From the IMG/VR virus record IMGVR_UViG_3300024229_000651: a stretch of DNA of 64,000 nt; one strand, 5' to 3'. Positions within the stretch are counted from its first letter, which is position 1; every line of letters starts with the position of its first letter. This DNA is from a virus (Duplodnaviria; Caudoviricetes). The notes below the pieces were generated by a model, which saw only the letters and a program-made list of their open reading frames with translations, searched no databases and was not told the DNA's origin. Below, piece by piece: positions 12,511-31,911 of the stretch. The position numbers and the translations under genes are program-made.

Positions 12511-12542
12511 ATTTTCTGCTCTTTATTGTTTAATATGTATAT

Positions 12543-12571: not shown

Positions 12572-12576
12572 CCTTT

Positions 12577-12984: not shown

Positions 12985-13017
12985 CTTTTTCTACTCTCTT
13001 TTTTAAACTATGCATAT

Positions 13018-13046
13018 ATTATACCAGAAATACTGGCAGAAGTCAA
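13018..13046 (-). promoter_or_regulatory. sigma70-type early promoter
   Basis: TTGACT-17-TATAAT. Confidence 0.85.
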
Positions 13047-13051
13047 CCTTT

Positions 13052-13339: not shown

Positions 13340-13371
13340 ATGCTCTGCCCTTTGCCCTAACTATGTATACT

Positions 13372-13399
13372 ATTATACTGGTTTTTGGGCAAAAGTCAA
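13372..13399 (-). promoter_or_regulatory. sigma70-type early promoter
   Basis: TTGACT-16-TATAAT. Confidence 0.8.
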
Positions 13400-13428
13400 C
13401 CTTTTTGCCAGAAAAAATGGTAAGAATT

Positions 13429-13480
13429 GTAAGTGCTTGTTTTTAATGAAGAAAAAATTCTAATAAAAACAAGCACTTAC
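13429..13480. repeat. perfect 17-bp inverted repeat of the TAAGTGCTTG motif
   Basis: GTAAGTGCTTGTTTTTA-18 nt-TAAAAACAAGCACTTAC. Confidence 0.9.
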
Positions 13481-13500
13481 ACACTTTGCTACAATCAGTC

Positions 13501-13522
13501 AAAAAAAAGCCCCCGAAGGGGC
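13501..13522 (-). terminator. intrinsic terminator
   Basis: GCCCC-TTCG-GGGGC followed by T8 on the minus strand. Confidence 0.9.
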
Positions 13523-13528
13523 AGTAGG

Positions 13529-13807
13529 TTAAAAATCACAGATCTTGTTTGCCAGCTCGTTACGGGCATCCCTTTCTGCCAGCTGTCGGTTAGCATATAA
13601 CCTTGCTTCAAATTCAGAACGTCCCATCTTTAAAGCAGCTTCAGTGTGGCTTTTGAGGAATCGTTCTCGTTCATTGTGGTAATCCTGTTCCATTTCATCC
13701 AGCAAATCGTCTAGGTTGCTTATCATGTTGTCAAATGCAGCATCGCTCTCATAGTATGCTTGATCACGTTGTGCTTTACGTGCGGTGAAATCAATTACAT
13801 TACTCAT
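13529..13807 (-). CDS. hypothetical protein
   Basis: MSNVIDF start with GGAG RBS. Confidence 0.65.
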   Translation of the reverse strand: MSNVIDFTARKAQRDQAYYESDAAFDNMISNLDDLLDEMEQDYHNERERFLKSHTEAALKMGRSEFEARLYANRQLAERDARNELANKICDF

Positions 13808-13817
13808 GTTATGCTCC

Positions 13818-14159
13818 TTATGCTGCAATCGCTGATTTTTTGATACTGTAAATAATGCCCTGCTTGCTGGCTTTGCGCTGCCATCCCTGACTTTCCAGAT
13901 AATCCACATAGTCAGTGTATTTGGCTACGTCCTGGATGTTACGGTTAAACACTTTGATACTTGCAAGCGTTTTACGGTAATTAAGTTTGGTTTCGCTATC
14001 AAAGTGCAACATGCTTAATACTTGCTCTGCACGTTCTAGTCTTAGTTGCAATTCTGCACTAAAGTGCGTTTTGTTTGCAGCGTTAGTGGTCTCTGCATTA
14101 AGTGCTGCAAAGTATTTTTGTTGAGCTGTTTCTGCTTCTACTGTGTTGATAAATTTCAT
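13818..14159 (-). CDS. hypothetical protein
   Basis: 113 aa; AGGAG RBS. Confidence 0.65.
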   Translation of the reverse strand: MKFINTVEAETAQQKYFAALNAETTNAANKTHFSAELQLRLERAEQVLSMLHFDSETKLNYRKTLASIKVFNRNIQDVAKYTDYVDYLESQGWQRKASKQGIIYSIKKSAIAA

Positions 14160-14479
14160 ATATTTTCTCCTGGCCTATTTCTGAGGCGGATTGTTTAAAA
14201 TTAATGTTTTAGGTTTGTGGATTGCGTTTTTAGTTATGTGTGTATACTAGCATGCATTTTGTAAGTGCAATACTTGCTACACAAAACAGTGTTGGTTGCT
14301 AGCCTTCTGTGTGCTAGTCGTTTGCCCTCTACTGTGCCCTAGCTTTAGGTTCTAGGTAACCTTATTACAGTGTTTATAATAGCAAAAGACACTAGATAAG
14401 TCAAATTTATGATGTGTTGTAAGTGCTTGATTTTATTGAAATTTTAAAAATAATGCAGATATTTGCACTAAAATACTGG

Positions 14480-14992
14480 TTAAAATATGAATTTTTCCCA
14501 GCTGGGATGCTTGATATGCACAGACATAGCGGTCTTGTTCTTTACTAGATCATAGTAACTTGGTGGGACAGGTTTCCTTGACGGCAAAGGAGTCAGGTCA
14601 TTTCCCTTATCACTGTTACACGGCTGACATGCTGTAACTACATTTTCAAAGGAAGTGTCTCCGCCTTTACTTACCGGAAGTACATGGTCTATGGTAGCAG
14701 TGCTGTAGGATAGATCTATATCACAATACTGGCATTTAAAACTGTCTCGTAGAAATACATTGTACTTGGAAAATCTAACTTTGGTGTTTTTCCTTACGTA
14801 TGTCTTTATCATTATCACGGCAGGAACTTTAGTTTCCCACGTGGGACTGCTGACCATCCATTCGTCATACCATTCTAGTACATGTACTTTGTCGAGCACC
14901 ATATACTTAACAGACTCTTGCCAACTAATTGCGCTAAGTGGAAGCACTGAGTAAGGTTTACCGTCTGCATTCAATACCAATGTGTCGCTCAC
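14480..14992 (-). CDS. HNH endonuclease
   Basis: RDSFKCQYC...TIDHVLPVSKGG...NVVTACQPCNSDK. Confidence 0.92.
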   Translation of the reverse strand: MSDTLVLNADGKPYSVLPLSAISWQESVKYMVLDKVHVLEWYDEWMVSSPTWETKVPAVIMIKTYVRKNTKVRFSKYNVFLRDSFKCQYCDIDLSYSTATIDHVLPVSKGGDTSFENVVTACQPCNSDKGNDLTPLPSRKPVPPSYYDLVKNKTAMSVHIKHPSWEKFIF

Positions 14993-15021
14993 GACAAACT
15001 CCTATTATCTAATAGTTTTAT

Positions 15022-16095
15022 TTACGCAAAGTCTGTGTAATTCTCTTTAAAACTGATTTCGAAACGGTCAGCAAGTTCTTTCATAAAGGTGCCACTACTA
15101 TGACTAGCGTCTCTACCAACTTCGTTGAATATGTCGGGACACCATTCTCTTTCAACAATCAATCCTTTCCTTTGATAATATTTGTAGGCATCATTGGGAT
15201 TTTCAGTATCATTGGCTAATATAGCTTGGGGTATCTTATAACTAGACTTCTCGTCTATTTGTTGAACCAGTGACTCATCATCGAACCCAGCCATTCGATC
15301 ATTGACATACTCTACTATCGGTACATTGTGCGCCCGGCATAATAAAATTAGGTATTCTCGCTTAATTAAAAACTCTGTTACTATATGCATTTCACTTTTC
15401 GCAAAGTGACCTTTAGCTACCAGTTTAACGTCTAGCGGCAGATCGTCTCTGGGGTCAGCAGGCGAAATCGGAAAAACATCTTTCGACAGTTTGTTCCCTG
15501 GAATACCATCGATAATTGTGGACATAATATCTTCCTCGACTCGACTAGCATTGTCTGATACTATTAATGTTCTATATAAATCGGGCCACCATACTGCTAC
15601 TGCCTTAGGTATGTACCCTTTATCGAAAAACGCTCTAGCAACCCATATGCAATAATCCACGCCTTGCCCACCAGAGCCTAAATTCCAATTAGGCAGGTTT
15701 AAAGCATTCGCTACACGTTGCGGCCAGGCTTCATGGTCTCTAACTCCTACACCAAATGTATGACTGCACCCTAGGCTCATTAGCCCGGGCATGCTTTTTT
15801 CAAAGTTGTCAGGTGTTCTAAAGTTTCTGTTGTTTGTGGTGTACAACATCTCGTCTGGATCGTTGTATGGCCTATGGGAATGCTGGTTTGATCTTATTTT
15901 TAATAAGTGTTGGTTACTTTCTCTACTCCAGTATTTTGGGTGATCCGACGGAACATATTGTACTTGATGGAAGCCATTAGGTAGTTTTTTTACAATGCCG
16001 TTACCACCTTCAATCCCATCGTGGTAGTCCATTAACCTCGGTAGCCTTGTTTGTGGGCCAATTGGTGGTATATGATTAAAGTTTGGTGAGGACAT
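15022..16095 (-). CDS. SGNH-like hypothetical protein
   Basis: LGCSHTFGVG, NLGSGGQG and DASH blocks. Confidence 0.5.
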   Translation of the reverse strand: MSSPNFNHIPPIGPQTRLPRLMDYHDGIEGGNGIVKKLPNGFHQVQYVPSDHPKYWSRESNQHLLKIRSNQHSHRPYNDPDEMLYTTNNRNFRTPDNFEKSMPGLMSLGCSHTFGVGVRDHEAWPQRVANALNLPNWNLGSGGQGVDYCIWVARAFFDKGYIPKAVAVWWPDLYRTLIVSDNASRVEEDIMSTIIDGIPGNKLSKDVFPISPADPRDDLPLDVKLVAKGHFAKSEMHIVTEFLIKREYLILLCRAHNVPIVEYVNDRMAGFDDESLVQQIDEKSSYKIPQAILANDTENPNDAYKYYQRKGLIVEREWCPDIFNEVGRDASHSSGTFMKELADRFEISFKENYTDFA

Positions 16096-19816: not shown

Positions 19817-20704
19817 TTATTTTCCTATTGCGTTGCCATATATGTGTACGTGTACTCGGCTTGTGTAATTGTATCCACGTTGTATTGCTTCATCGGCTAT
19901 ACTTGCTTCTGTTTGTACCAAGCCTTCGAATGTACCGCCGACACCCATAATCCATACTGGGAAGTTACATCCTGCTTCTCTGAATAGTTTGGTATTTTCT
20001 TCTACTTCTCTCCAACTTTCATCAGTGCCATTTACTACAAATTTTAGTTGACCACGACTAGAGACTTCGGCATACTTACCTACCACTTCAGGCTGAATAG
20101 CCTTTTTAGATTTCTCACCAGCAGTGCTCCACAGTTTAGGACTGATACTCCAATACCATTCTTTGCCTTCACATCTAGTATAACAACGATTAATATAATC
20201 AGCAAACTCGTCAGTGATAGGTCTAGTACCATTTGTTTCTACAGTAACAAAGTTGGGCATATTATCTCTTTTAGCAAACTCGTCTAACACACCAATCATA
20301 CCTGGCTGTGTGTTCTTTAACATAGGCTCGCCACCTGTAAACACCATGTGCGTTTCTTGTAATGTTGCAGGATGAATAAAGCTACCGTGCGGCAGAAGGG
20401 CTGTAAGCTCGTCTACTGCATCCTTTACACTACGATCGGTAATGAGATGCTTAAACTTCTTACTCCACGTATACGAACTATCACATCCTTTGTCAAACAC
20501 AGGAAGATCAAACACATTATCGATGTGCGTGATATCAATTTTCTCATATGGTAAGTCGTATGTGCTAGGGTCAGTAGGATCTGTTTGACCAAAGCCATTG
20601 CATTGTAAATTACACAAAAAGAATCTCATCCACAGGCTAGGTATGCCTACATACTGCCCTTCTCCTTGTGCTGAATAAAATGTTTCGCTGTACTTTAAGT
20701 TCAT
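19817..20704 (-). CDS. queE: 7-carboxy-7-deazaguanine synthase (radical SAM)
   Basis: ETFYSAQGEG, CNLQC...CDS cluster, FTGGEP, VETNGT, ISPK, LKFVV, HVHIYGN. Confidence 0.88.
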   Translation of the reverse strand: MNLKYSETFYSAQGEGQYVGIPSLWMRFFLCNLQCNGFGQTDPTDPSTYDLPYEKIDITHIDNVFDLPVFDKGCDSSYTWSKKFKHLITDRSVKDAVDELTALLPHGSFIHPATLQETHMVFTGGEPMLKNTQPGMIGVLDEFAKRDNMPNFVTVETNGTRPITDEFADYINRCYTRCEGKEWYWSISPKLWSTAGEKSKKAIQPEVVGKYAEVSSRGQLKFVVNGTDESWREVEENTKLFREAGCNFPVWIMGVGGTFEGLVQTEASIADEAIQRGYNYTSRVHVHIYGNAIGK

Positions 20705-21513: not shown

Positions 21514-22191
21514 TTATTTAGATGAGTTTACAATGTTCATGAATTCAGCACGAACGTCTGGTTCGTTCTTAAAGCAACCTCCTAGCTTGCTAGTGATTGT
21601 TGAGGAGCCTGTGTCCTCGACACCTCGACTCTTAACGCAATAATGTTGTGCATCAACAATAACTCCAATATTGGGCGTATCTAATATATACGACAATGCA
21701 TGATAAACTTGTTCAGTTAATCTTTCTTGGATTTGTGGACGTTTAGCAAAATATTCAACAACTCTGTTAAGTTTACTAAGTCCTAGCACTCTTTCATTTG
21801 GGATGTAGCCCACTGTAGCAACACCATCAATTACAACAAAGTGATGCTCGCAGTTTGATTGAACATTAATGTTACGCTCAATAACCATTTCGTCGTACTT
21901 CATTTTATTGTCTACTGCTGTACACTTTGGGAATGCTTCGTAGTCAAGTCCCCAAAAGATTTCGTTAACATACATCTTTGCCACACGCTTAGGTGTGTCC
22001 ATAAGACTGTCATCTGAAAGGTCTAGCCCCATGACGTTCATGATGTTTTTAAAGTGTTCTTCGATTAGATCAATTTTATCTGTACGAGAAAACCCGTTGT
22101 TATCAACTGGTGTTTCAACACCCATCTTTACTAGATGTTCGTGTACTCTGCGACCCAGATCTGGGTCAGTTTTAGTCTTATTATAAGCCAT
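21514..22191 (-). CDS. folE: GTP cyclohydrolase I
   Basis: TPKRVAKM, CEHH, GLSKLNR, RPQIQERLT, HYCVKSRG. Confidence 0.96.
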   Translation of the reverse strand: MAYNKTKTDPDLGRRVHEHLVKMGVETPVDNNGFSRTDKIDLIEEHFKNIMNVMGLDLSDDSLMDTPKRVAKMYVNEIFWGLDYEAFPKCTAVDNKMKYDEMVIERNINVQSNCEHHFVVIDGVATVGYIPNERVLGLSKLNRVVEYFAKRPQIQERLTEQVYHALSYILDTPNIGVIVDAQHYCVKSRGVEDTGSSTITSKLGGCFKNEPDVRAEFMNIVNSSK

Positions 22192-22262: not shown

Positions 22263-22469
22263 TCAACTGTCAAGTTTGATAATACCATTTTCCCAATTTT
22301 CTACTACATCCTCAGCATAGTGGATGCTTTTATTGAGCAATGTACGTGTCTCTTTCATAACACCATCCTCGAACAAGTCGACGACATAAGTCATGTCAGG
22401 GCCTTTAGTACCATCGCTGATATATTTAACTTTTCTTATTTTTGCAATACGTTCCATTACTTCCACCAT
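22263..22469 (-). CDS. hypothetical protein
   Basis: 68 aa between the PRTase and folE. Confidence 0.55.
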   Translation of the reverse strand: MVEVMERIAKIRKVKYISDGTKGPDMTYVVDLFEDGVMKETRTLLNKSIHYAEDVVENWENGIIKLDS

Positions 22470-22921
22470 TCCTCATAAGGAAAAACGATCCAATTGTTAT
22501 CCTCAAGTTCAATTTCTTCTGCATAATAGTCTACACCATCGAACGAACTTGATTGCTTGTTAAATATTGTAGCATATCTGATGTCAGAATACAAGCTATT
22601 ATTTTTATTAATAGCTTCAGATATACCAGACAGAGTGCTACCAGTGTCGTTGATATCATCGATAACAAGAATATCTGTGTTACTATGATTGCTTAAAATA
22701 CTTTGTAGTTGTTCAGCATCTTCGAAATCACCATCCCTTGTTTGCCAGTTGAATCCTTCGAACGGAACGTTTAAATAGTGACTGAGCATTACACCGGGTA
22801 TATATCCTCCTCTACCAGGCCCAATTACTACACCTGGATTAAACGAGTCCAAGGAAATCATACGCACCAAATCAGCAAGGTATGATTCTAAATCATCCCA
22901 TGTATAAAATTTCTTCATCAC
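22457..22921 (-). CDS. purine (xanthine-guanine-type) phosphoribosyltransferase
   Basis: YTWDD, VLVIDDINDTGST PRPP loop, WIVFPYE. Confidence 0.88.
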   Translation of the reverse strand: MMKKFYTWDDLESYLADLVRMISLDSFNPGVVIGPGRGGYIPGVMLSHYLNVPFEGFNWQTRDGDFEDAEQLQSILSNHSNTDILVIDDINDTGSTLSGISEAINKNNSLYSDIRYATIFNKQSSSFDGVDYYAEEIELEDNNWIVFPYEEWWK

Positions 22922-23901
22922 GTTTTCCTTTTAGATTTTGCAGATTGCCATTTGATCTCATCTCTGATAATATCTTCAATAGACATAGCAGGACTCCATC
23001 CTAATACTTTAGCGGCTTTGCTATTATCTGCAAAAGTACCTACCATATCACCCGGTCGCCTAGGCGTAATAGATGTATCAATCTCTGTGTCTAGTTCTTT
23101 TGCAACCAGATCAACAAGTTGTTTTGTGCTGACAGGATTGCTACTACCAATGTTTAATGTAGTTGAATCGCCACCGTCACTCAAGTAGTTAACAGCGGAT
23201 TGGAACGCTCTTGCAACGTCACTCACGTGGGTATAGTCACGAATGTTTGTTCCGTCTACAGTGTCGTAGTCGTCGCCGTTAATCTCAAACCCTTCGTTCT
23301 CCATAGCTTTTCGTGTAAGTATGGGAAGAACATGAACAAGCGGATCTTTTTGATAACCGTATCGGCCATTAGCACTGCCTGCAACATTAAACAGTCTCAA
23401 GTTAACAAAGTTAAAATCGTTTGCCGTTGCATAGTCTTGGATAATTTGCTCACAGATCATTTTTGATCTGCCATATGGATTGATTGGACTTAGGCTATCG
23501 TCTTCTTTGAACATACCATTGTCTTGTTGGCTTGTACCGTATACACTACTACTTGATGCAAATATAAAGTTCTTTACACCAGCGTCAGCGCAGTTATTAA
23601 GCAAGTTGATTGTTTGATAGACATTTTGTGTGTACGTGGTCGCCGGGTCCTTCATACTAGCTGGTACACTGTTATTTGCCGCTATATGAATAACTACATC
23701 AGGTTTAAGTAACTTTAATATACCGTTAACTTGTTTGTTATCAACCTCAAACGGGTATTGGGTTACACCTTCTAATGTGCGTTTGCTTTTATCAATGTTA
23801 ACAACATTGTATCCGCTGTCTGATAACAATCGACAAACGTTACTTCCAATAAAGCCGCTGCCTCCCGTTACAACCACAGATTTTTCTGTTATGTTATTCA
23901 C
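22918..23901 (-). CDS. galE: NAD-dependent nucleotide-sugar epimerase (GalE-like)
   Basis: VTGGSGFIG, SSSSVYG, YGRSK, RDYTHV; GTG start at 23901 with GAGGA RBS. Confidence 0.88.
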   Translation of the reverse strand: MNNITEKSVVVTGGSGFIGSNVCRLLSDSGYNVVNIDKSKRTLEGVTQYPFEVDNKQVNGILKLLKPDVVIHIAANNSVPASMKDPATTYTQNVYQTINLLNNCADAGVKNFIFASSSSVYGTSQQDNGMFKEDDSLSPINPYGRSKMICEQIIQDYATANDFNFVNLRLFNVAGSANGRYGYQKDPLVHVLPILTRKAMENEGFEINGDDYDTVDGTNIRDYTHVSDVARAFQSAVNYLSDGGDSTTLNIGSSNPVSTKQLVDLVAKELDTEIDTSITPRRPGDMVGTFADNSKAAKVLGWSPAMSIEDIIRDEIKWQSAKSKRKT

Positions 23902-24952
23902 TTGTGTGTCCTCTAATAATTGTGTACAGTTTCTCACCACTGAAAAACTCTTTTCTTAAATTGCTTTCCAAATCTTGTATTCGATTATCTCGTTCGTAAC
24001 TAGGAGTAAGAACTGCTTGTATGTATTCAACTATCTTATCCTTGTGGTTCAAATAGCTGTCCCAATCCTCTGTCCATGCACTTGGATATTTAAAGTAGTC
24101 ATCGTACATCTCTGTATAACTAAGTCTGTCTGGAACAATAGGTTGAGCACCTACAATGGCTCCTTCGTAACAACTGATGCCTAATGTTTCTTGTGTGTTA
24201 GCACTGAACACTGCTTTGGCTTTACCAAGTAGATCATGATACTCGTCTTTGGTTAGCGTTTGTTCCTGACAAACAATAAAGTCTGTGTCTGGAAAGCTGT
24301 TAGCTAAGTCTTTGAAAATATCAACTTGTTTTTCAGGTGCGACCCGATGAGGGAATAGTACAATATCTTCTTTGTCGGCAGAAGTATGTGTGTCTAATAA
24401 TCCCTTCATGTACTCCATTGGCCAACCCACTTTGTGAATTTTATTTAAATCCACATCTGGGAATGCCTCTAAAAATAATTCTATATGAAAGTCGGTAGCA
24501 TAAAAATTATCATCGAAGGCATTGAACATTGCAAGTTCTGTGTGTCTGCACCATGGAGCGTTACCTATCAGCCTTCCTAAAAAGTCTGCTGGGTCATAAC
24601 TACCGGCATGCCACATGCCTCCGATTTTAATTTTTACATCAAGTAATTCAGCCATATACTTTAATTGAAGAACTGTAGGGTTCCAAGCATCAGTGTATAA
24701 GAAGTAGTCTCCGTCTTGTACAGTACCGTCTGCAAACATCTGGCTAATTGTTTTCAGTTGCTCGCTTTTCCAGTAATTAGTTCCACTGAAGTTTAAAAAT
24801 GCTCCCGGAGTTGTGTCTTGAGGAGCATCAGCTGGTCCCTCTATAACATGTACCTCTAGCCCAGCATCACGCATTTGCTGAGGCAAATGCTTTTTCCACT
24901 GCGCAGTGTATCTTGTTTCTACAGGTTCTATTTCAACTAAGTATACTTTCAT
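23894..24952 (-). CDS. GT-B (GT4-like) glycosyltransferase
   Basis: FPHRVAPEK and QETLGISCYEG (E-x7-E) motifs. Confidence 0.75.
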   Translation of the reverse strand: MKVYLVEIEPVETRYTAQWKKHLPQQMRDAGLEVHVIEGPADAPQDTTPGAFLNFSGTNYWKSEQLKTISQMFADGTVQDGDYFLYTDAWNPTVLQLKYMAELLDVKIKIGGMWHAGSYDPADFLGRLIGNAPWCRHTELAMFNAFDDNFYATDFHIELFLEAFPDVDLNKIHKVGWPMEYMKGLLDTHTSADKEDIVLFPHRVAPEKQVDIFKDLANSFPDTDFIVCQEQTLTKDEYHDLLGKAKAVFSANTQETLGISCYEGAIVGAQPIVPDRLSYTEMYDDYFKYPSAWTEDWDSYLNHKDKIVEYIQAVLTPSYERDNRIQDLESNLRKEFFSGEKLYTIIRGHTSE

Positions 24953-25153: not shown

Positions 25154-26188
25154 TTATTCCGTATTTGATACGGATTCGATTATGGCACCATAATTTTTTT
25201 GATATTCCATTAGGGTGTCGTAATTATGTTGTAATATTTCTGCAGTTTCTAGTGAATACATATCGATATGCATTTGTTTAATGGACAGTCCTTTTAGCTG
25301 TTCCAGCACATGATTCATTCTCTTGTCGTCATCGAGCGAATCGTATCTTTCGTCAAATATGTGTGGGAAGGTTTTAAATCCCATTTTGCGTAACTCTTTC
25401 AATGAATTTTTATTACCGATAAGTAAGAAAGGTCTCTTATTATATATGCTTCGGAATATCTTCTCACTGAAAAATACTGGTTCCCAATGCGCTAATTGTG
25501 CACAATGAAACTGATCATGGAAATAAAATGTTTCAGGGACCAAGTCGAAGTAAGTTCTATCGTAAATATCAAAAAACTCTTTCCCTGGATCTTGAAAGGT
25601 TCTGCGCTCCATTACAGTTTTGTGTCCCTCAGCAGACTTTGGAACTTTGTCGTGAAACCATGGATGTAACTCTTCCTTAAAGTCGTTTATCCATGTCCAT
25701 TCGCAACTGTCAATGAGATTATTTTCGTAGATATAATTCATTGCTTCGATACGATGGTCTCTTGGCTCTCCGCACAAGTATGTGAATAACTTTTCTCTGT
25801 GGGTATTGTTTCGTAATACCTCATATTGTGCATGGTAATCAGTTGTGTTTGTGACAAGTACGGATGCCCAAATTGGATAGTATGCTACAGTTAGTCTACT
25901 ACTTGGGTTGTTTTCTTTGCACCACATATCGTATAGATCTTGGACATTAACATTACCCCACCATAGTGTTACTAAACTGGGGTCAACGGATGCAATACTG
26001 CACTGCTCGTATATAACAGTAAACAAGTCCATGCCACGAGAAGTGTGAGTAGATTGCCTATCCGGATCTATAAAAAGCCCGCCCTCAGTGATTAAGTCCA
26101 TTGAGATAGTCTCGCCAGCTGGCATCAGGGCTAACTCTTCGTGCAAAGTTTCGCCTGGGTAACCTGAATACAGCTGGATATGATTCAT
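25154..26188 (-). CDS. putative glycosyltransferase-like protein
   Basis: YFDLVPET...FFSEK...RPF C-terminal block resembles GT10-type motifs. Confidence 0.4.
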   Translation of the reverse strand: MNHIQLYSGYPGETLHEELALMPAGETISMDLITEGGLFIDPDRQSTHTSRGMDLFTVIYEQCSIASVDPSLVTLWWGNVNVQDLYDMWCKENNPSSRLTVAYYPIWASVLVTNTTDYHAQYEVLRNNTHREKLFTYLCGEPRDHRIEAMNYIYENNLIDSCEWTWINDFKEELHPWFHDKVPKSAEGHKTVMERRTFQDPGKEFFDIYDRTYFDLVPETFYFHDQFHCAQLAHWEPVFFSEKIFRSIYNKRPFLLIGNKNSLKELRKMGFKTFPHIFDERYDSLDDDKRMNHVLEQLKGLSIKQMHIDMYSLETAEILQHNYDTLMEYQKNYGAIIESVSNTE

Positions 26189-26556
26189 TCCTGATACTCT
26201 ATTTCACAACCATTTTCGTTGTCTTCTGCAACAGATATCTTTAGCCAGCGGTCTGGGTACTTGGCTTGTACATGCTCCGCTAAATCATCTGCGATCATTT
26301 CACAGCTCTTGTAATCCAACTGCAATGTGTCTTGTGTGTACAGTCTTTCCATCCAGCGTTTAAACTGAATAAACTCCACGTCTCTGTCATTGTGGAACAC
26401 TTCAAGCCAAACTTTAAAATGGAATATATGTCGGTGGGGATATCCTAAAAAAGATACGTCATCCCAATCGCCTGTTGCTAGATTGGGATCAGTATCAGCG
26501 CCTGGATACTTGTGTACACCTTCCTTTTGAAACGTTACCCAAATACTTCTCATCAA
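26185..26556 (-). CDS. QueD-like T-fold protein (DpdL candidate)
   Basis: LGYPHRHIF, RDVEFI, SCEMIA, EDNENG. Confidence 0.65.
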   Translation of the reverse strand: MMRSIWVTFQKEGVHKYPGADTDPNLATGDWDDVSFLGYPHRHIFHFKVWLEVFHNDRDVEFIQFKRWMERLYTQDTLQLDYKSCEMIADDLAEHVQAKYPDRWLKISVAEDNENGCEIEYQE

Positions 26557-26626: not shown

Positions 26627-27103
26627 TTACGCATCACTACCAAACGTATCGATATACTCTGCTAGGTCTTTGATGTCATCCTCTGACAACATACCTGCTT
26701 GCCCCCACATAAGTGCACTCTGTGCCCCTACTGTTTCTCCTGCTTTGTAACTACGTAAACGATCTACGATATATTCCACAGTCTGTCCTGCAAGCATGGG
26801 ACCAACTCCGCCTTGCCCACGTGCTCCGTGACAAGCACCACAAGAAGCATATTTTGCTTGCCCGGGCATAACATCAGCAGATGCTAATTGCACTCCGGCG
26901 CTTACAACATAGGCACTTGCTGACCCAGTAAAGTTTGCAGGTTCAGCAGATACGTGAACTACACCGAAGCCTTTGATTCTTTCTTCGATGCCTGCTAGTT
27001 GTTCTTTTGTAGTATCAGTACGTTTTGCTGCGAACACAGCTTGCTCGCCACAGCCGCCAATGAACAGTGTTGCTGCTAAGATTGTTGTTGTTAATAGTTT
27101 CAT
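26627..27103 (-). CDS. class I c-type cytochrome (c553/c4-like) with export signal
   Basis: CGACH heme motif, GPMLAGQ, distal Met (ALM); N-terminal signal/lipobox-like LFIGGC. Confidence 0.88.
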   Translation of the reverse strand: MKLLTTTILAATLFIGGCGEQAVFAAKRTDTTKEQLAGIEERIKGFGVVHVSAEPANFTGSASAYVVSAGVQLASADVMPGQAKYASCGACHGARGQGGVGPMLAGQTVEYIVDRLRSYKAGETVGAQSALMWGQAGMLSEDDIKDLAEYIDTFGSDA

Positions 27104-27333
27104 GTGTTATCTCCGTCAAAATATTTAACATCACTTTTATTAAAAGGTTTATTATCGTCGCCTTTGACCAAAGAAACTAGTCGGGCGATCTCGTCTTTAA
27201 CCTTGAGTTTGGTTTTCTTAAGAAAGTTTACTCGCATATCACCTTCATAGTTTTCACTTGCAAGCTCAATTTGACTATCAAGTCTTTTGTGTTTTGTTTT
27301 AAGAACTTCAATTCTATCTTTCATTGTAGTCAT
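27100..27333 (-). CDS. DUF465/YdcH-like protein
   Basis: LKTKHKRLDSQI...LKKTKLKVKDEI. Confidence 0.65.
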   Translation of the reverse strand: MTTMKDRIEVLKTKHKRLDSQIELASENYEGDMRVNFLKKTKLKVKDEIARLVSLVKGDDNKPFNKSDVKYFDGDNT

Positions 27334-27511
27334 CTTCTTCTCCTCCTAAGCACTTTCTGTCTTCAGGTTCAATTGGATTATCGTAATAATCGTGCGTTCC
27401 TGCTCTGTACCTTGCTTTCTTTTCGCTGACTAGAACACAACTCATATATGCCATCCATCCCATGCCCGCAAGAAAAATCAAACTGAATATAGTTTGTATT
27501 ACTTCAATCAT
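27314..27511 (-). CDS. small membrane protein
   Basis: N-terminal TM helix. Confidence 0.55.
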   Translation of the reverse strand: MIEVIQTIFSLIFLAGMGWMAYMSCVLVSEKKARYRAGTHDYYDNPIEPEDRKCLGGEEDDYNER

Positions 27512-27629
27512 CGGATAGCTCTGCCGTTGTGTTATAAAGACCTTTCATACTTTCGATAACTGCAATAATCTCTTCGACTTCGTCAGCATCATCTTTAGTA
27601 TCAATTTCTATTTCAATTTTAATTTTCAT
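27504..27629 (-). CDS. 41-aa acidic protein (not in ORF track)
   Basis: manual translation MKIKIEIEIDTKDDADEVEE...; TTGACT-17-TATAAT at 27636-27664 directly upstream. Confidence 0.5.
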   Translation of the reverse strand: MKIKIEIEIDTKDDADEVEEIIAVIESMKGLYNTTAELSDD

Positions 27630-27653
27630 AATAATATTATACTGTATATAGGA

Positions 27654-28100
27654 TCAATAGTCAACCATTTTATTTGGCGTATCACCCCTTTGCTCCCTCA
27701 AATTCACCTTTTCCAAACTAAGTTTATCCTTCAAACTCAATACATATGCACTCGCAGCAAGTATAGCAATACCTGTTGTTTCATAAAGTATAAATTCAGG
27801 CTCAGTTCCTTTAGTTGTTAATACAATCATTCTAGTCAGTGCTGTGATTGCAATAATGATAGGTAGTGTGACTGGTATTCTATGATCTTTATAAAATGCA
27901 CCAACCATACCTAATATTTCTGCGTAAATAAACAATAGGAATAAGTCGGCCAATGCCATCTTTCCGCTTGTTGTGAACATATGCAAAATATCAAACCCAG
28001 CTGCCCATACTGTACCTGCTACAATAAACAATAGCAATGCTTTTTCCATATGCATAATAATTCTATGGACAGAGTTCTTATATTTTCTACTGAATGACAT
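27654..28100 (-). CDS. psiE: phosphate-starvation-inducible PsiE-family membrane protein
   Basis: LADLFLLFIYAEI...IPVTLPIIIAITALTR. Confidence 0.85.
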   Translation of the reverse strand: MSFSRKYKNSVHRIIMHMEKALLLFIVAGTVWAAGFDILHMFTTSGKMALADLFLLFIYAEILGMVGAFYKDHRIPVTLPIIIAITALTRMIVLTTKGTEPEFILYETTGIAILAASAYVLSLKDKLSLEKVNLREQRGDTPNKMVDY

Positions 28101-28630
28101 TACTCTATTACCTCGTCGCCCACATATTCAGTCCAATCGGTGTACTTGGATCTGTCTTTGAGGTCGTGTAAACTGTGGCACCAAACACCTGTGTTTGTTC
28201 CTTTGAATGATTTATCATCTAGTTTGAGTGTTGTATTGTAGTTAAACAATTTGATATTCGGAAGTCGAACAGCAATCATAGGGATAAATTTATTGTAGTC
28301 AGTCCAGCCGTTATCGTGAAACCATTCGTGATTAGCATAGGAGCTGTCGAAATCAAGTGTGACCCATACATCAGCGTCTAACAGTTGCGTAATAATGTAA
28401 TCCCATTCTGCCCACGAGTTCGAATCATCTTGTGGCTGAAATGAGTCAGCACATCCTAAGTACACATGATCAATTTTGTTGTTTAGACATCTTGCTAAAA
28501 TCTCCTTAACATTTTGTCTACCAATAACAAACAACGTTTTTTTGCCATACAGAGGAGTATGCTCAACTTCAGTACCAATAAAGAACTTTGGATCGTCTCC
28601 AAAGTTGGTCCTACCTTCTACTGTTGCCAT
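28100..28630 (-). CDS. hypothetical protein in the dpdA operon
   Basis: 176 aa; overlaps both neighbours; GTEVEHTP...TLFV and GVWCH motifs. Confidence 0.7.
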   Translation of the reverse strand: MATVEGRTNFGDDPKFFIGTEVEHTPLYGKKTLFVIGRQNVKEILARCLNNKIDHVYLGCADSFQPQDDSNSWAEWDYIITQLLDADVWVTLDFDSSYANHEWFHDNGWTDYNKFIPMIAVRLPNIKLFNYNTTLKLDDKSFKGTNTGVWCHSLHDLKDRSKYTDWTEYVGDEVIE

Positions 28631-29508
28631 GTTAAATATGTCCTGTTCTTGTCTATGCTTGTTGTTCTGTTGTTAAATGCAGTACCGGCTTCTGTAGTAG
28701 GATACTCGGCGCCCCACATATCGTCAACGTTAATGATATTCTTTTGTACTAATAAGTTTGCCTTAACCATACTGTTATAAAACGTTTTTGTTCTCGGACT
28801 AGGAAAATCCGTTCTAATCGATTTCCATAGAAACGGAGCAAAGTCTACATCACCGTGCTTCTCTGCACACATTAAATAGTGACCATTGTTATTAAGTATG
28901 TCGGCAGTAAAATACTTTATATGACTCGACAAGTCGACAACTACATCATACTGATCAGATAGATTATGTTCTCGCCTAGCACCTTTATCATCCCACCAGT
29001 CAGAGTATGCTTTACCTGTTACTGTAACATTACGTAATCTGCTTTTGTTATTGTACTCTAACACTTCATATATTACTCTTGCTAAGAAGCCTGTGCCTAT
29101 CATTAGCAATGACCTATTACCTAATTTACCAATTATGTCTGCAATGTTTACAGCACATGCCACAGGCTCTAGTATATATTTAGGCATTGCCGCTGGAACA
29201 ACAACAAATTCTCCGTCTCTAACATTATAGTAGTCTGCAAATGCAGGCTCTCCTCTAGTGGCTACAATGTCGCCTACCTTTGCAGTACTTACATTTTTGC
29301 CAACAGACATAACTTCGCCTAGCCCTTCATGCCCGTGCATGTTATCAGGCAACATGTTCATGTCACCATTAAACATGGCTACGTCACTACTGCATATACC
29401 TGTGTATATAGACTTAACTACTATTTGGTCTTCGGTGTGTTCAGGTTTATCCCACTCGATATGAGATATTGTCTTATCGCTGTTCACTTTAATTAAATTA
29501 CATTTCAT
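28618..29508 (-). CDS. zinc-binding (MDR) dehydrogenase-like protein
   Basis: GICSSD, GHEGLGEV, GDIV, EPVAC. Confidence 0.85.
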   Translation of the reverse strand: MKCNLIKVNSDKTISHIEWDKPEHTEDQIVVKSIYTGICSSDVAMFNGDMNMLPDNMHGHEGLGEVMSVGKNVSTAKVGDIVATRGEPAFADYYNVRDGEFVVVPAAMPKYILEPVACAVNIADIIGKLGNRSLLMIGTGFLARVIYEVLEYNNKSRLRNVTVTGKAYSDWWDDKGARREHNLSDQYDVVVDLSSHIKYFTADILNNNGHYLMCAEKHGDVDFAPFLWKSIRTDFPSPRTKTFYNSMVKANLLVQKNIINVDDMWGAEYPTTEAGTAFNNRTTSIDKNRTYLTWQQ

Positions 29509-30379
29509 TTTCGTGGTACCTTTCTAGCTGACTATGTATCCATAGATCCATATCAATGTGGTCTTGGTAACTATCTTTCTCTGAACGTGCTATCATTCTT
29601 CCGTATGCGTCATTAGGGCATAACCCAAACCGCCATTCGTATGTGCTGTCTTCTGTGTATACTTTTACACTCTGATCATCAATGCCAGTCTTCCATCCTG
29701 CTTTTATTGTAACAGGCACATTGTTCCAAGTCCAATGCTCTTCGGCATAGTCACACACATCATATACACCTTCTGCATTTACATTACCGTAGTTTGTTGA
29801 TAATAATTCTTCTAGTTCCCACTGTCTTGTTTTAGTATGGCTCACAAAAGACATCTCTGTTAACGGAACAATTTTACTTAGGTTACAATATAAGTGTGGG
29901 AACAAATCTAAAGCCACTCCACCCCATGCAAGTTTTTTATTTGTGAACCAACTACCCGGACTAGGAACACGATTTGCATTCAACCATGATACTTCAATCT
30001 TGGTTGGTCTTATACTCTTATTCAACAGATCGTCTAGTGCGCCGTATGATGTTCGATATAGATTATTTTTACACATGATGTACTTTGTATCAGTGTATCT
30101 ATTCTGCAGGCGTGTTAATGCTTCCACACTGGGTAAACCAGGCTTTTCAATAAACACAGTTTTGCAATACATACCAACTTTTTCGGCAATAGGAAGGTGT
30201 GTAAAATTAGGCGTACAAATAACAGCAACATCAAATTCTCCACGAACATCGTCGACGTTGTTATAATTTGCTGTAACAACTTGCTGATCCACAGTTGTGA
30301 CTGTGTACCCTAACTGAGTTAACTCAGGTAAGTAAACGTTAGACCCTATACCCCCTAGACCAACAAGTAATGCTCTCAT
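29498..30379 (-). CDS. Gfo/Idh/MocA-family oxidoreductase
   Basis: VGLGGIG, ICTPNFTH, EKP, GGVALDLFPH. Confidence 0.85.
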   Translation of the reverse strand: MRALLVGLGGIGSNVYLPELTQLGYTVTTVDQQVVTANYNNVDDVRGEFDVAVICTPNFTHLPIAEKVGMYCKTVFIEKPGLPSVEALTRLQNRYTDTKYIMCKNNLYRTSYGALDDLLNKSIRPTKIEVSWLNANRVPSPGSWFTNKKLAWGGVALDLFPHLYCNLSKIVPLTEMSFVSHTKTRQWELEELLSTNYGNVNAEGVYDVCDYAEEHWTWNNVPVTIKAGWKTGIDDQSVKVYTEDSTYEWRFGLCPNDAYGRMIARSEKDSYQDHIDMDLWIHSQLERYHENEM

Positions 30380-31911
30380 AGTTCTCCTACTAGCTCTCCG
30401 AGTGCCTCTTCTTGAATAGCATCAAACTCTCCTTCGACTTGTTGCTCTACTTCCTCATCGAAGAACATACTAGCAGCACTAGTCTTAAATGCAGTATCAT
30501 GATCTTTGTGTTTGTTATTGCTAACGTCATTTAGGAATTCATGCGCATCATCTAACAATTGGTGAGGATTGTCGCTTTGGAATAACTCTTCAACAAACGT
30601 GTTAAACATCAGTAAGTTTCTAGGAGTGTATAAACTCTCTTGATTGAGTTTCTTACCCTTCTTCTGCCAGCTTCTCCAATCCAACTTGTAGTTTTCAAAC
30701 TCAATAGTTGCTAGACTATTTGCTTCCTGTACTGCTCTAATATGCATGTAAACATTGTGTGCCATCAGCATACCATACGTAAAACTATCCCAAGAAGTTT
30801 TACCTTCTTTGTTGATCTTGTTTAACATACCGGGAGCATACCAATTAACATCACCAGTTACAAGCCTACTACCAATCTCACTCTCCCACGGGAAAGGATT
30901 AGCAGACAAGTTACCAGGACTAAAGTGTGAGTTCGCTTTATTGTCGAAGCACTTCTCCATTATGTAACTCATTTGTTCACTGGTAATTTTATTACGTGTG
31001 TATACTAATCCATTAGCACTACTGATATATGGACTAGCACAATCAAAACTAACTGTGATGTTTGGATTAACATGCTCTCTGAGTTGTCGTTGCACACTTG
31101 TAAGCATAACTGCCCACTCTAGTTTACTTGTACCCAAGAAGTGAATCCAATCTCGATCCTGTAGTTTTTCATCATCACGTAAAGTAATGATACGTTTCAG
31201 TGCCATGTGCATGTCACGGATATTATTACCACCCATGCCCCAGCCTTCTGTGTCGTAGTCCTTAACTTTTTGATACCATTCTTCTGCATCTTCCCAATAG
31301 GTTCCTTGCAGTACATTCAAGAACTTTGTCTTGCCTTGTCTATGATCCATAAACCAATCTAAGTTGTATGCAGTACACTTCAAGCACTCATCAAAGTTCT
31401 GTAGTCCAGTCTTCTCTCTAAAGCCCGGCTTACATGCCCAGCTAGGAACATCAAACGTCATACTCCAGTCTGCTGTGTGTTCTAGCCAGTTAAGGATCTT
31501 GCCCCTAACTTTGTCAGCATCGCCTTTGTATCCAACATCGCCAGGCTTCTCAAAGAAGTTTTCCCAGTCAAACTTAATAACACCTTTACCAATCTGGAAA
31601 CCACCTGAATCCCCTACGATAGTTGTGTTAGCTCTGTCTCTATGTTGTATGATGTGTTCCATTACCTTACTCTTCTCTATGTCCAAGTAAGCATGTCCAG
31701 CACTATACAACCCTTTGTTATAGTAGTAGTAACCCTTCTCTTTGTCCAAGAAGTTCATGCCCTCAAAGCCATGTTCGAAGCCTTTGGGTACTCGACCGTC
31801 CGGAATATATCCATCCACACTGTTGCATCTGCCTAGTAGCTCTGTCATAAAGCCACTAATAGCTGGGAGGAAAGTTGCGTAATCGCTATGCTTGGAGGAT
31901 AGATCTCTCAT
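30376..31911 (-). CDS. dpdA: TGT-fold transglycosylase, probable DNA 7-deazaguanine insertase
   Basis: DSGGFQ, MTFDVP, NVLQG, GMGG, IHFLG, SFDCAS; queE/folE nearby. Confidence 0.8.
   Translation of the reverse strand: MRDLSSKHSDYATFLPAISGFMTELLGRCNSVDGYIPDGRVPKGFEHGFEGMNFLDKEKGYYYYNKGLYSAGHAYLDIEKSKVMEHIIQHRDRANTTIVGDSGGFQIGKGVIKFDWENFFEKPGDVGYKGDADKVRGKILNWLEHTADWSMTFDVPSWACKPGFREKTGLQNFDECLKCTAYNLDWFMDHRQGKTKFLNVLQGTYWEDAEEWYQKVKDYDTEGWGMGGNNIRDMHMALKRIITLRDDEKLQDRDWIHFLGTSKLEWAVMLTSVQRQLREHVNPNITVSFDCASPYISSANGLVYTRNKITSEQMSYIMEKCFDNKANSHFSPGNLSANPFPWESEIGSRLVTGDVNWYAPGMLNKINKEGKTSWDSFTYGMLMAHNVYMHIRAVQEANSLATIEFENYKLDWRSWQKKGKKLNQESLYTPRNLLMFNTFVEELFQSDNPHQLLDDAHEFLNDVSNNKHKDHDTAFKTSAASMFFDEEVEQQVEGEFDAIQEEALGELVGEL

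Follow-up and report, generated by a model that had tools for sequence, protein, structure and literature searches.

A Gfo/Idh/MocA-family oxidoreductase and a zinc dehydrogenase/reductase as a candidate sugar-tailoring pair in a dpdA-type phage DNA modification locus

The DpdL-type system (PMC10516641), represented by phage ACP17, has FolE, QueD and QueE and no QueC, and combines a QueD paralog carrying the LxxxHRHxF signature with a TGT-superfamily DpdA, all near replication genes. CDG decarboxylase activity of DpdL is a proposal of the same paper, in which sugar enzymes are not mentioned (PMC10516641). We analysed a 64,000-nucleotide window (the whole stretch considered here) from an uncultured phage with a 340 kb genome, in which a predicted guanine-replacing DpdA-like enzyme is coupled to two sugar-type oxidoreductases. 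The locus shares all of the above features with the DpdL-type system, and adds u176, a GT4-like glycosyltransferase (GT), GalE and the two oxidoreductases, a Gfo/Idh/MocA-family enzyme (GFO) and a minimal zinc dehydrogenase/reductase (MDR); ACP17 has u176 and the GT but not the two oxidoreductases.

Glycoside 3-dehydrogenases (DgpA and the levoglucosan and glucuronide 3-dehydrogenases) share with GFO the Rossmann domain, the EKP motif and the Asp/His pair, but are longer (360-410 aa, compared with 293 aa for the phage protein). In those systems the keto-sugar is a deglycosylation intermediate, whereas here a reductase partner is predicted and no lyase is evident. IolG and IolW are the two enzymes that epimerise myo- to scyllo-inositol. 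This route, like that predicted for the phage pair, uses an NAD+-type dehydrogenase and an NADPH-type ketoreductase and inverts a hydroxyl via a keto intermediate; the phage reductase, however, is an MDR and not a second GFO, and its cofactor preference, like that of GFO, is read from the sequence only.

In the T-even phages, which make glucosyl-hydroxymethylcytosine, GT-B-type enzymes use a UDP-sugar to put a hexose on a non-canonical base for protection from host nucleases, as predicted here. The base modified by the T-even alpha- and beta-glucosyltransferases is a pyrimidine made at the nucleotide level, whereas here it would be a transglycosylated purine analogue; a ThyA-type hydroxymethylase was looked for in the genome and not found, which leaves the GT without an evident hydroxymethyl-pyrimidine acceptor. 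T-even phages do not have a sugar-redox tailoring pair. The huimycin and dapiramicin clusters of actinomycetes, which combine a 7-deazapurine core with a base-glycosylating GT and sugar-tailoring enzymes (bioRxiv 10.64898/2026.04.15.718813), provide a precedent for sugar-bearing deazaguanines. Their products are preQ0-based small molecules made without DpdA, whereas the present pathway, from a virus, lacks QueC and is linked to a DNA transglycosylase.

Gene layout and the DpdA-like protein

A preliminary description had noted overlapping junctions in the run dpdA, GFO, MDR and the following gene. All three were confirmed on the minus strand from the ORF coordinates and the sequence letters. 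The DpdA-like stop and the GFO start overlap by 4 nt and share ATGA (30376-30379), the GFO stop (TAA) and the MDR start overlap by 11 nt (29498-29508), and the MDR stop (TAG) and the start of u176 by 13 nt (28618-28630). The starts chosen for these genes agree with the N-termini in the family alignments. Overlaps are common in this region: by ORF coordinates, 9 of the 15 successive junctions from 19.8 to 35.6 kb overlap. They are the norm in the genome, and thus indicate only one compact transcription/translation unit. What stands above chance is the conservation of the GFO/MDR arrangement in relatives, rather than the overlaps. Between u176 and the DpdL-like gene lie genes for PsiE and a cytochrome c, evident cargo that is not conserved in relatives.

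Table 1. Genes of the modification locus, with positions in the window and the evidence for each assignment
Feature	Position	Strand	Evidence
DpdA-like DNA guanine transglycosylase candidate, 511 aa	30376..31911	-	AF2/Foldseek, hhalign, motifs
GFO, Gfo/Idh/MocA-family oxidoreductase, 293 aa	29498..30379	-	PF01408, motifs
MDR, minimal zinc dehydrogenase/reductase, 296 aa	28618..29508	-	PF08240, motifs
u176, 176-aa protein without assigned function, fourth in the overlapping run	28100..28630	-	linkage
DpdL-like T-fold protein, proposed CDG decarboxylase	26185..26556	-	HRH signature, tblastn
GT4-like (GT-B) glycosyltransferase	23894..24952	-	weak PF00534, E-x7-E, synteny
UDP-glucose 4-epimerase GalE	22918..23940	-	TIGR01179, PF01370
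Gpt-like purine phosphoribosyltransferase (PRTase)	22457..22921	-	PF00156, synteny
GTP cyclohydrolase I FolE	21514..22191	-	PF01227, 206.5 bits
QueE-like radical-SAM CDG synthase	19817..20704	-	identity to PA5oct QueE

The identification of the first gene as dpdA-like is supported by the predicted structure, which has a TGT fold. The AF2 model (pLDDT 80, pTM 0.82) was compared with the PDB by Foldseek, and the best 50 matches were all to Z. mobilis TGT (best E 3.7e-9, probability 1.0). With hhalign the protein matched a 'TGT domain-containing protein' of Vibrio phage GR7B (probability 96.5%, E 8.8e-10), the DSGGFQ motif being aligned. Among 12 relatives DSGGFQ (101-106), D154, LQG (201-203) and D290 in FDCASP are invariant, and GG (227-228) is almost invariant. 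Pfam and PHROG searches gave no match and the zinc motif CxCxxC is absent, which sets this divergent TGT-superfamily member apart from the DpdA of the DpdL-type system as a distinct, longer subfamily; hhalign with the ACP17 DpdA reached only 68% probability.

The DpdL-like protein reads L-G-Y-P-H-R-H-I-F, in agreement with the DpdL signature, and by tblastn is 53% identical to the ACP17 protein and 32% to that of phiST. PF00534 matches in the GT-like family are weak (11 of 16 members, best E 4.8e-5). All members share E255 and E263, in E-x7-E spacing, and an Atlas feature search grouped the protein with GT1-family clusters. Acidovorax phage ACP17 has a homolog (hhalign E 1.5e-72) flanked by DpdA and DpdL, and in PA5oct another adjoins the DpdA-like gene; together with the DpdA-like and DpdL-like genes, the GT belongs to the conserved core. 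GalE exceeds the equivalog cut-off of TIGR01179 (279.2 bits; cut-off 262.3) and matches PF01370 with E 2.9e-53. The PRTase scored 46.5 bits with PF00156, its best NCBIfam match being a xanthine PRTase under the cut-off of that family, and is syntenic with PA5oct gp321. The QueE-like protein is 36% identical to the annotated PA5oct QueE, its NCBIfam QueE matches being weak. QueD is encoded elsewhere in the phage genome, and no QueC was found above its cut-off.

For u176, searches of Pfam, PHROG and NCBIfam gave no match. Its AF2 model (pLDDT 77) has a partial beta/alpha-barrel-like arrangement and found no significant match in the structure search. The gene adjoins the DpdA-like gene also in loci lacking GFO and MDR and occurs in PA5oct and ACP17; it is linked to the DpdA-like gene more widely than the oxidoreductase pair.

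The oxidoreductase pair and its linkage in viral relatives

Both family assignments of the preliminary description hold: GFO scored 34.7 bits with PF01408 (cut-off 24), and MDR, in which the structural-zinc lobe is missing, 44 bits with PF08240 (cut-off 23.5). The active sites are intact. Across 63 distinct homologs of GFO, the GxGxxG motif, D31 at the end of beta-2, EKPG (78-81), D158 and H162 show no or almost no variation. For MDR, all 61 distinct homologs share C39, H60, E61, C118 and the GxGxxA/S motif, and 59 of them have E114. This strict conservation extends over both sets despite identities down to about 35%.

A profile search of solved structures with GFO gave as best match the C-glycoside 3-oxidoreductase DgpA (7xr9, E 8.5e-12, 47.9 bits), followed by levoglucosan, glucuronide-3 and inositol-2 dehydrogenases; in these relatives the oxidation takes place at C3 of glycosides or at hydroxyls of cyclitols. 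The likeness to DgpA-type enzymes is too modest to define the substrate. GFO is probably an NAD+-dependent sugar or glycoside dehydrogenase. The best solved relatives of MDR, matching in the N-terminal domain only, are ketose reductase and sorbitol, xylitol and threonine dehydrogenases, and MDR is predicted to be the ketoreductase partner of GFO. By general Rossmann-fold rules, the invariant Asp at the end of GFO beta-2 suggests NAD+ dependence. In MDR an invariant Gly precedes a residue that varies, and is often basic or small, at the position of the Asp of NAD enzymes; by the same rules this suggests NADPH dependence.

A GFO-seeded scan of IMG/VR yielded 63 distinct viral homologs, many in incomplete loci. 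MDR follows GFO in 61 loci, with overlapping or abutting junctions in 55 of these. The DpdA-like gene is on the same contig in 62 of the 63 loci and within 10 kb of GFO in 61; in an apparent exception (L108) it is about 100 kb away on the same contig. Near GFO, u176 and the DpdL-like gene were each found in 54 loci and the GT-like gene in 50, and FolE and QueE are likewise on the same contig in most loci. The pair is kept inside reshuffled clusters: FolE-GFO-MDR-DpdL-GT (L032), QueE-DpdA-FolE-GFO-MDR-GT (L107) and, in a PolA-type phage (L109), QueD-QueE-FolE-DpdL-GFO-[second GT]-MDR-GT-DpdA, where the second GT matches PF00534 with E 2e-10. These results support the suggested tie between the pair and the dpdA modification locus.

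The GFO subfamily is virus-specific. Among 185,579 prokaryote genomes there was a single match, on a 6-kb MAG contig with the order GFO-MDR-u176. Within a clade whose DpdA-like proteins are 80-96% identical, between-group identity is 49-58% for GFO and 43-61% for MDR, the pattern that would be expected of a specificity-determining cassette.

Looked at from the DpdA side, the pair is present in 21 of 26 informative loci, namely in all 20 with DpdA-like identity of at least 65% and in one at 37%. Thus close DpdA homologs do not usually lack both oxidoreductases, but many distant ones do. The DpdA-like family (at least 7,097 clusters) is far larger than the GFO (777) and MDR (896) families, which indicates that only a minority of it uses the pair. 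Three sampled loci without GFO and MDR, at about 50% DpdA-like identity, retain u176, FolE, PRTase and a gene of GT size. Confirmation by tblastn was obtained for the DpdL-like gene in two of them, L118 and L119, and for the GT-like gene in one, L118. Next to the gene of GT size there is a cytidylyltransferase-like gene in L118, an epimerase and a cytidylyltransferase-like gene in L119, and a UDP-glucose/GDP-mannose dehydrogenase in P0332. The pattern suggests a conserved core with a variable slot for sugar tailoring; other sugar enzymes at the same place in distant homologs point to an accessory sugar-tailoring role for the pair, not to absence of linkage. ACP17 has the core (u176, DpdA, GT, DpdL) without GFO and MDR, which argues that the pair is dispensable for the core modification.

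Proposed pathway and alternative roles

From the gene identities, folds, intact active sites, co-occurrence and synteny we infer a route, in which the chemistry throughout, the sugar and its acceptor atom, and the sequence of events are all predictions. FolE, QueD and QueE would make 7-carboxy-7-deazaguanine, which the DpdL-like T-fold protein would decarboxylate, and the DpdA-like transglycosylase would swap guanine in phage DNA for the deazapurine. The GT4-like enzyme would attach a hexose, with the phage GalE balancing UDP-galactose and UDP-glucose. GFO would oxidise one sugar hydroxyl to a ketone (C3 is a guess from the nearest solved relatives) and MDR would reduce the keto group, the net result being an epimerised or otherwise redox-altered sugar. 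On weak grounds, we lean slightly towards the sugar after transfer, over the UDP-sugar donor, as the substrate of the pair. A counterpoint is that plain 7-deazaguanine offers no obvious hydroxyl for glycosylation. We hold it somewhat more probable than the opposite that the pair epimerises, by oxidation and re-reduction, or otherwise tailors the GT-handled sugar in a QueC-less 7-deazaguanine DNA hypermodification.

The pair might instead act on the deazapurine side, either on a C7 substituent (aldehyde/alcohol) or, if the PRTase makes a deazapurine nucleotide, on the ribose of that product. Interconversion of 7-formyl and 7-hydroxymethyl groups would in principle be within the reach of an MDR alcohol dehydrogenase, the PRTase is part of the cluster, and in roughly half of the loci the DpdA-like gene is immediately followed by GFO and MDR. 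We nevertheless consider this unlikely: QueC was not found above its cut-off and the DpdL signature predicts that the 7-carboxyl is lost, in which case the base would probably carry nothing at C7 to tailor; the nearest GFO relatives work on secondary sugar or cyclitol hydroxyls; reshuffled loci keep the pair with the GT, not with DpdA or PRTase, and in L109 a GT separates the two enzymes; and PRTase was detected in only 25 of the 63 loci, many of them incomplete. Of the functions offered by the preliminary description, redox tailoring of the 7-substituent therefore fits poorly, whereas building or tailoring of a sugar fits best, given the GT and GalE in the operon, the solved relatives of GFO and the GT between the two L109 genes. 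A cyclitol (inositol-type) moiety in place of a hexose, by analogy to IolG-type GFO and IolM-type MDR enzymes, appears rather improbable: inositol dehydrogenases are among the solved GFO relatives, but the NCBIfam matches of GFO to IolG and MDR to IolM are weak, far under the family cut-offs, and the cluster contains GalE and a nucleotide-sugar-type GT instead of an inositol-phosphate synthase or a cyclitol-transfer enzyme.

Evident cargo in the same gene run and the frequency of overlapping junctions would also fit auxiliary metabolic genes for host sugars or polyols, accumulated in a hot spot beside the DNA polymerase and having no role in DNA modification. Against this quite improbable origin stand the co-occurrence with the DpdA-like gene, the retention of the pair in rearranged and PolA-type clusters, the near absence of the GFO subfamily from cellular genomes and the conservation of GFO and MDR, but not of PsiE and cytochrome c, in relatives. 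In the cultured PA5oct group a GFO-MDR-u176 triplet lies 26 kb from the DpdA-like gene, and its full-length GFO and MDR proteins have lost the dinucleotide-binding motif, EKP and the zinc ligands. Such proteins can thus persist without redox chemistry, with a non-catalytic role at least there. That the pair in general is mainly a scaffold or regulatory subunit acting with u176, and perhaps with the DpdA-like enzyme, redox activity being secondary, is very improbable, as catalytic and cofactor residues are strictly conserved here and in the 63 and 61 uncultured homologs, which would not be expected of a pure scaffold.

In summary, sugar tailoring is the reading that we favour, and with modest confidence we regard GFO and MDR as a fixed, translationally coupled pair of active NAD(P)-dependent enzymes and as the lineage-specific sugar-tailoring part of a 7-deazaguanine hypermodification pathway. 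We found no published description of this module. The recurrence of the pair with this pathway and a GT in dozens of related phages suggests a hitherto undescribed sugar-decorated, redox-tailored guanine substitute in phage DNA.

A compact gene run around a DpdA-like gene

The window sits in a 339.8-kb IMG/VR virus record estimated by CheckV to be about 91% complete. According to the ORF coordinates every gene between 19.8 and 35.6 kb lies on the minus strand (Table). The preliminary description had reported three overlapping stop/start junctions in the stretch where dpdA overlaps the genes of a Gfo/Idh/MocA oxidoreductase (GFO) and a medium-chain dehydrogenase (MDR, here of the minimal zinc type). 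Reading of the sequence bore these out exactly: dpdA and GFO share an ATGA at 30376-30379, GFO and MDR overlap by 11 nt (29498-29508), and MDR overlaps the fourth gene, u176, by 13 nt (28618-28630). In this genome neighbouring genes often overlap (9 of the 15 consecutive junctions in the 19.8-35.6 kb region), and the overlaps alone show only a compact operon. A promoter and terminator scan of the region gave nothing above shuffled expectation; its best sigma-70-like match (11/12, 27664-27636) is just upstream of the cytochrome unit. The PsiE and cytochrome genes, which separate u176 from the gene of a T-fold (DpdL-like) protein, are not conserved at this place in relatives. Among the relatives compared, cytochrome c was found only in loci L016 and L041; PsiE turned up in L028 alone, at the opposite side of the cluster. 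These two genes look like cargo inserted into a modification operon. The locus had no blastn match among 50,697 phage records, and the isoelectric points, all acidic, were uninformative on DNA binding.

Features of the gene run and of the compared loci (G000, the whole viral record)
Feature	Position	Strand	Remarks
1-2: family-B DNA polymerase, then virion protein		-	virion protein homologous to gp314 of Pseudomonas phage PA5oct
3: DpdA-like protein	30376-31911	-	511 aa
4: GFO	29498-30379	-	293 aa
5: MDR	28618-29508	-	296 aa; ADH_N domain
6: u176	28100-28630	-	176 aa; family not placed
7-8: PsiE, then c-type cytochrome	26627-28100	-	PF06146, 63 bits; PF00034
9: T-fold (DpdL-like) protein		-	123 aa
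10: 344-aa protein	25154-26188	-	virus-only family; no Pfam match
11-12: GT-like protein, then GalE		-	GT-like protein 352 aa
13: Gpt-like phosphoribosyltransferase	22457-22921	-	
14-16: FolE, DUF433 protein, QueE		-	
QueD	G000:151014-151394		52.8 bits; outside the run
QueC-like signal	G000:C1:113990-114166		in a 315-aa ORF
L109 (IMGVR_UViG_3300035698_005593), cassette	7765-15495		contiguous QueD-QueE-FolE-DpdL-GFO-(second GT)-MDR-GT-DpdA; DpdA 400 aa
PA5oct (L117), overlapping triplet	4870-7147		full-length GFO, MDR and u176 homologs; EST35_0362-0364
L118, beside GT-sized gene			cytidylyltransferase-like gene
L119, beside GT-sized gene			epimerase and cytidylyltransferase-like gene
P0332 locus, beside GT-sized gene			UDP-glucose/GDP-mannose dehydrogenase

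An AF2 model of the DpdA-like protein, built on 12 relatives (pLDDT 80, pTM 0.82), has the (beta/alpha)8 barrel fold of the TGT type. The top 50 Foldseek matches in the PDB were all Zymomonas mobilis TGT (best E 3.7e-9, probability 1.0, target TM about 0.5). The DSGGFQ motif (101-106), D154, LQG (201-203) and D290 within FDCASP do not vary among the 12 relatives, the most distant of which is 37% identical, and GG 227-228 is almost as constant; we take D101 and D290 to be the counterparts of the catalytic D102 and D280 of the Z. mobilis enzyme. In hhalign the family matched a 'TGT domain-containing protein' of Vibrio phage GR7B with 96.5% probability and with the DSGGFQ motifs aligned. The canonical TGT zinc motif is missing, the CxCxxC of the GR7B protein facing a cysteine-free stretch of the DpdA-like family.

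Pfam (PF01702) and PHROG gave no match for the protein, TIGR00430 scored far below its cut-off (E 0.064, 12 bits against 307), and an HMM search of PDB sequences with the family returned nothing. The homologs of PA5oct, ACP17 and Vibrio phage 2.275.O likewise lack a TGT sequence-profile match, and the placement came from fold comparison and hhalign only. Homologs adjoin QueE in PA5oct, and QueF, QueC and FolE in Vibrio phage 2.275.O. Because fold, conserved motifs, profile comparison and the neighbouring 7-deazaguanine synthesis genes agree, we accept the original dpdA call in the form 'DpdA-like', a divergent subfamily of the TGT superfamily predicted to exchange guanine in DNA for a 7-deazaguanine. 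Compared with DpdA3 proper, the family reached just 68% hhalign probability with the DpdA of ACP17, and phiST gp042 gave no alignment with its profile.

7-Deazaguanine genes and the conserved core

FolE (206 bits), QueE (36% identical to the annotated PA5oct protein) and the DpdL-like protein are encoded in the same run as the DpdA-like protein, QueD elsewhere in the genome. No QueC reached the cut-off in the genome, an absence that is not absolute in a record of this completeness. The sole QueC-like signal was a sub-threshold match of 20 bits to the QueC N-terminus, the PP-loop region; the 315-aa ORF carrying it probably encodes a different PP-loop ATPase. Neither a Pfam TGT nor a ThyA-type enzyme was detected in the genome. 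The T-fold protein, 53% identical to the ACP17 and 32% to the phiST protein, contains L-G-Y-P-H-R-H-I-F, which matches the LxxxHRHxF signature defining DpdL, the proposed CDG decarboxylase (Cui, Hutinet et al.; PMC10516641). The gene set parallels the QueC-less dDG pathway of phiST: FolE, QueD and QueE are present, no QueC reaches its cut-off, and the DpdL motif is there.

The GT4-like glycosyltransferase (GT) family gave weak Glycos_transf_1 matches in 11 of 16 members and has invariant E255 and E263 in E-x7-E spacing; an HMM search of PDB sequences returned nothing for it. In ACP17, DpdA and DpdL flank a homolog (hhalign E 1.5e-72), and in PA5oct one directly follows the DpdA-like gene. Homologs of u176 occur directly upstream of the ACP17 DpdA and also in PA5oct. 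For u176 itself the PDB profile search, Foldseek against the PDB, the AFDB clusters and the VIA wide search yielded no more than likenesses to part of a barrel, all of them sub-threshold (best Z 6.8, QueE), and a language-model feature search gave weak glycoside-hydrolase-like leads. On this evidence the conserved core consists of DpdA-like, u176, DpdL-like, GT, FolE and QueE, often joined by the phosphoribosyltransferase.

The Gpt-like phosphoribosyltransferase is syntenic in PA5oct and was detected in 25 of the 63 GFO loci. Its role could be to recover the guanine that base exchange sets free, or to form a deazapurine nucleotide in the way of the phosphoribosyltransferases of the toyocamycin and tubercidin pathways. 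At this position the 344-aa protein is shared with the closest relatives alone (L016, L045). In an Atlas structure search its fold was found fused, in other viruses, to an Epimerase/GDP-mannose-dehydratase domain or to a methyltransferase, and a weak feature lead (0.79) pointed to GT10 fucosyltransferases. A second enzyme acting on sugars may be encoded here.

The oxidoreductase pair and its linkage to the module

We surveyed the active sites of 63 distinct GFO and 61 distinct MDR proteins from viral contigs, with identities to the window proteins down to about 35%. GFO matches PF01408, the N-terminal Rossmann domain, with 34.7 bits (cut-off 24). In its GxGxxG motif G7 and G12 are kept in all 63 homologs and G10 in 62; E78-K79-P80-G81, which includes the catalytic Lys of the EKP motif, and the downstream Asp/His pair D158 and H162 are invariant except for E78D in two. 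Another invariant residue, D31 at the end of beta-2, suggests by general Rossmann-fold rules a preference for NAD+. The C-terminal alpha/beta substrate domain scored below cut-off with PF22725 (20 bits against 27), for which several homologs have a precomputed match. The nearest solved relatives by profile are DgpA, a C-glycoside 3-oxidoreductase (E 8.5e-12, aligned up to residue 234), levoglucosan dehydrogenase, glucuronide 3-dehydrogenase and inositol 2-dehydrogenase, with WbpB appearing weakly. The subfamily is virus-only: its one match in 185,579 prokaryote genomes, a 6-kb MAG contig reading GFO-MDR-u176, is a mis-binned phage fragment.

MDR matches PF08240, the GroES-like N-terminal domain, with 44 bits (cut-off 23.5). 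The zinc ligands C39, H60, E61 and C118 never vary in the 61 homologs, 59 of which also keep E114. Residues 84 to 114 contain no cysteine cluster in the alignment, so the structural-zinc lobe is absent, as it is in some other MDR subfamilies. In length the protein falls about 50 aa short of the solved relatives. These are of the polyol- and threonine-dehydrogenase types and match mainly over the N-terminal domain. G138-T-G140-F-L-A143 (GxGxxA) is conserved, and a PF00107 (ADH_zinc_N) match was not reported. At the position where NAD enzymes have Asp, MDR carries a variable residue, often basic or small, just after the invariant G165, which suggests that it prefers NADP(H). Such opposite cofactor preferences would suit an oxidise-then-reduce relay. 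With key residues essentially invariant across the survey, both proteins read as working enzymes under purifying selection.

The preliminary description had proposed profiling the pair against this DpdA clade. In a DpdA-seeded scan GFO and MDR were present in 21 of the 26 informative IMG/VR loci. The association held for all 20 loci with at least 65% DpdA-like identity and for one at 37%, and failed in five loci at 44-51%. Seeding with GFO, we found MDR following in 61 of 63 distinct homologs, with 55 of the 61 junctions overlapping or abutting. A DpdA-like gene lies within 10 kb of GFO in 61 of the 63. The 62nd, L108, a candidate for a pair without a DpdA-like gene, was ruled out as such by the gene about 100 kb away on the same contig; the 63rd is a 13-kb fragment in which FolE abuts GFO. 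Shuffled clusters still hold the pair inside the module. The clearest of them, L109 (Table), belongs to a phage with a family-A (PolA-type) DNA polymerase, which suggests that the cassette moves between unrelated phage lineages. Neither GFO nor MDR was seen in the partial contigs of L026-L031, which at 4-32% completeness could well have missed them. In the INPHARED set no cultured phage with an intact GFO/MDR was found.

Signs of a variable slot and a possible role in sugar tailoring

Clustered at 90% identity, GFO forms 777 and MDR 896 clusters, the DpdA-like family at least 7,097. In three sampled DpdA-like loci at about 50% identity the pair is missing; u176, a GT-sized gene, FolE and the phosphoribosyltransferase are kept, and other genes stand beside the GT-sized gene (Table). 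There, tblastn confirmed the DpdL-like gene in L118 and L119 and the GT-like gene in L118 only. In a clade with 80-96% identity between DpdA-like proteins, alleles from different groups share just 49-58% identity for GFO and 43-61% for MDR; on these identities the pair looks mosaic and among the most diverged parts of the module. When loci L005-L025 were compared, the window and L016 shared 96% identity in the DpdA-like protein, 54% in the adjoining GFO, 47% in MDR and 39-80% in other genes of the run, a step in identity that implies recombination with a boundary in or close to the 4-nt overlap of dpdA and GFO. Taken together, the other sugar-nucleotide enzymes in the slot and the strong divergence of the pair fit a conserved core for base insertion and glycosylation with an exchangeable sugar-tailoring cassette.

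On balance we lean towards a role of the pair in sugar tailoring: in a DNA hypermodification based on deazaguanine, the two enzymes would modify the hexose that the GT4-like transferase uses, GFO by oxidising a sugar hydroxyl and MDR by reducing a keto group. Action after glycosyl transfer is weakly favoured, because the nearest GFO relatives act on glycosides and because the GT-like proteins of phages that have the pair are about as far from that of the window as those of phages that lack it. For N-glycosylation of a deazapurine at its 2-amino group, huimycin-type natural products offer a precedent (bioRxiv 10.64898/2026.04.15.718813). A variant in which the deazapurine bears the sugar through a C-linkage, at its electron-rich C7 or C8, would echo the best GFO match, a C-glycoside 3-oxidoreductase; we consider it a long shot.

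Redox chemistry on the base, as in the 7-substituent tailoring put forward in the preliminary description, or on a nucleotide ribose is a reading that we regard as improbable; the nearest solved GFO relatives act on sugar or cyclitol hydroxyls. The cyclitol named there beside a rare sugar finds an echo in inositol 2-dehydrogenase; with GalE and a GT-like protein encoded in the same run, we think it very unlikely. Unrelated auxiliary metabolism appears a shade less likely again in view of the linkage that persists in shuffled clusters. A scaffold role, the least likely of these, would draw on the cultured PA5oct group, which has a GFO-MDR-u176 triplet 26 kb from the DpdA-like gene (hhalign 99.8% and 100%). 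Its GFO copy has lost GxGxxG and D31 and reads DIN for EKP, and its MDR copy has lost zinc ligands (C39S, H60C, C118R). Both appear to be retained pseudoenzymes. Loss of redox chemistry thus need not remove such proteins, and for the redox steps PA5oct is no stand-in; the copies in the survey have kept their active sites. ACP17 has the core and lacks the pair.

Returning to hexose tailoring, we tentatively extend it to a broader picture: uncultured aquatic jumbo phages of a large clade, together with at least one phage of the PolA type, might carry in their DNA a glycosylated 7-deazaguanine whose sugar is epimerised or oxidised by virus-specific GFO/MDR enzymes, the cassette being swapped or diversified between otherwise near-identical phages. 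To our knowledge, the eight known 7-deazaguanine DNA modifications all have small C7 substituents and none has a sugar. If the picture is true, the base would be the first purine analogue in DNA described as bearing a sugar. No paper found by full-text literature search connected DpdA-type systems with glycosyltransferases or sugar oxidoreductases, Gfo/Idh/MocA not being covered by name, and the phiST/ACP17 paper makes no mention of either (PMC10516641). It reports that DpdL and DpdA of these phages gave no product in E. coli, which could then point to a need for additional partners, u176 or the GT for example. The modification would also explain why PA5oct DNA resists restriction at G-containing sites (PMC12191111).

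Cassette exchange would in that case resemble an O-antigen-type arms race with modification-sensing nucleases, and the hypervariable cassette may explain escape from modification-dependent nucleases. Given the abundance of the GFO, MDR and DpdA-like families in metagenomes, the chemistry may be widespread in metagenomic phages. Phage DNA chemistry would gain a glycosylated purine analogue and a new class of DNA-linked sugar-tailoring enzymes.
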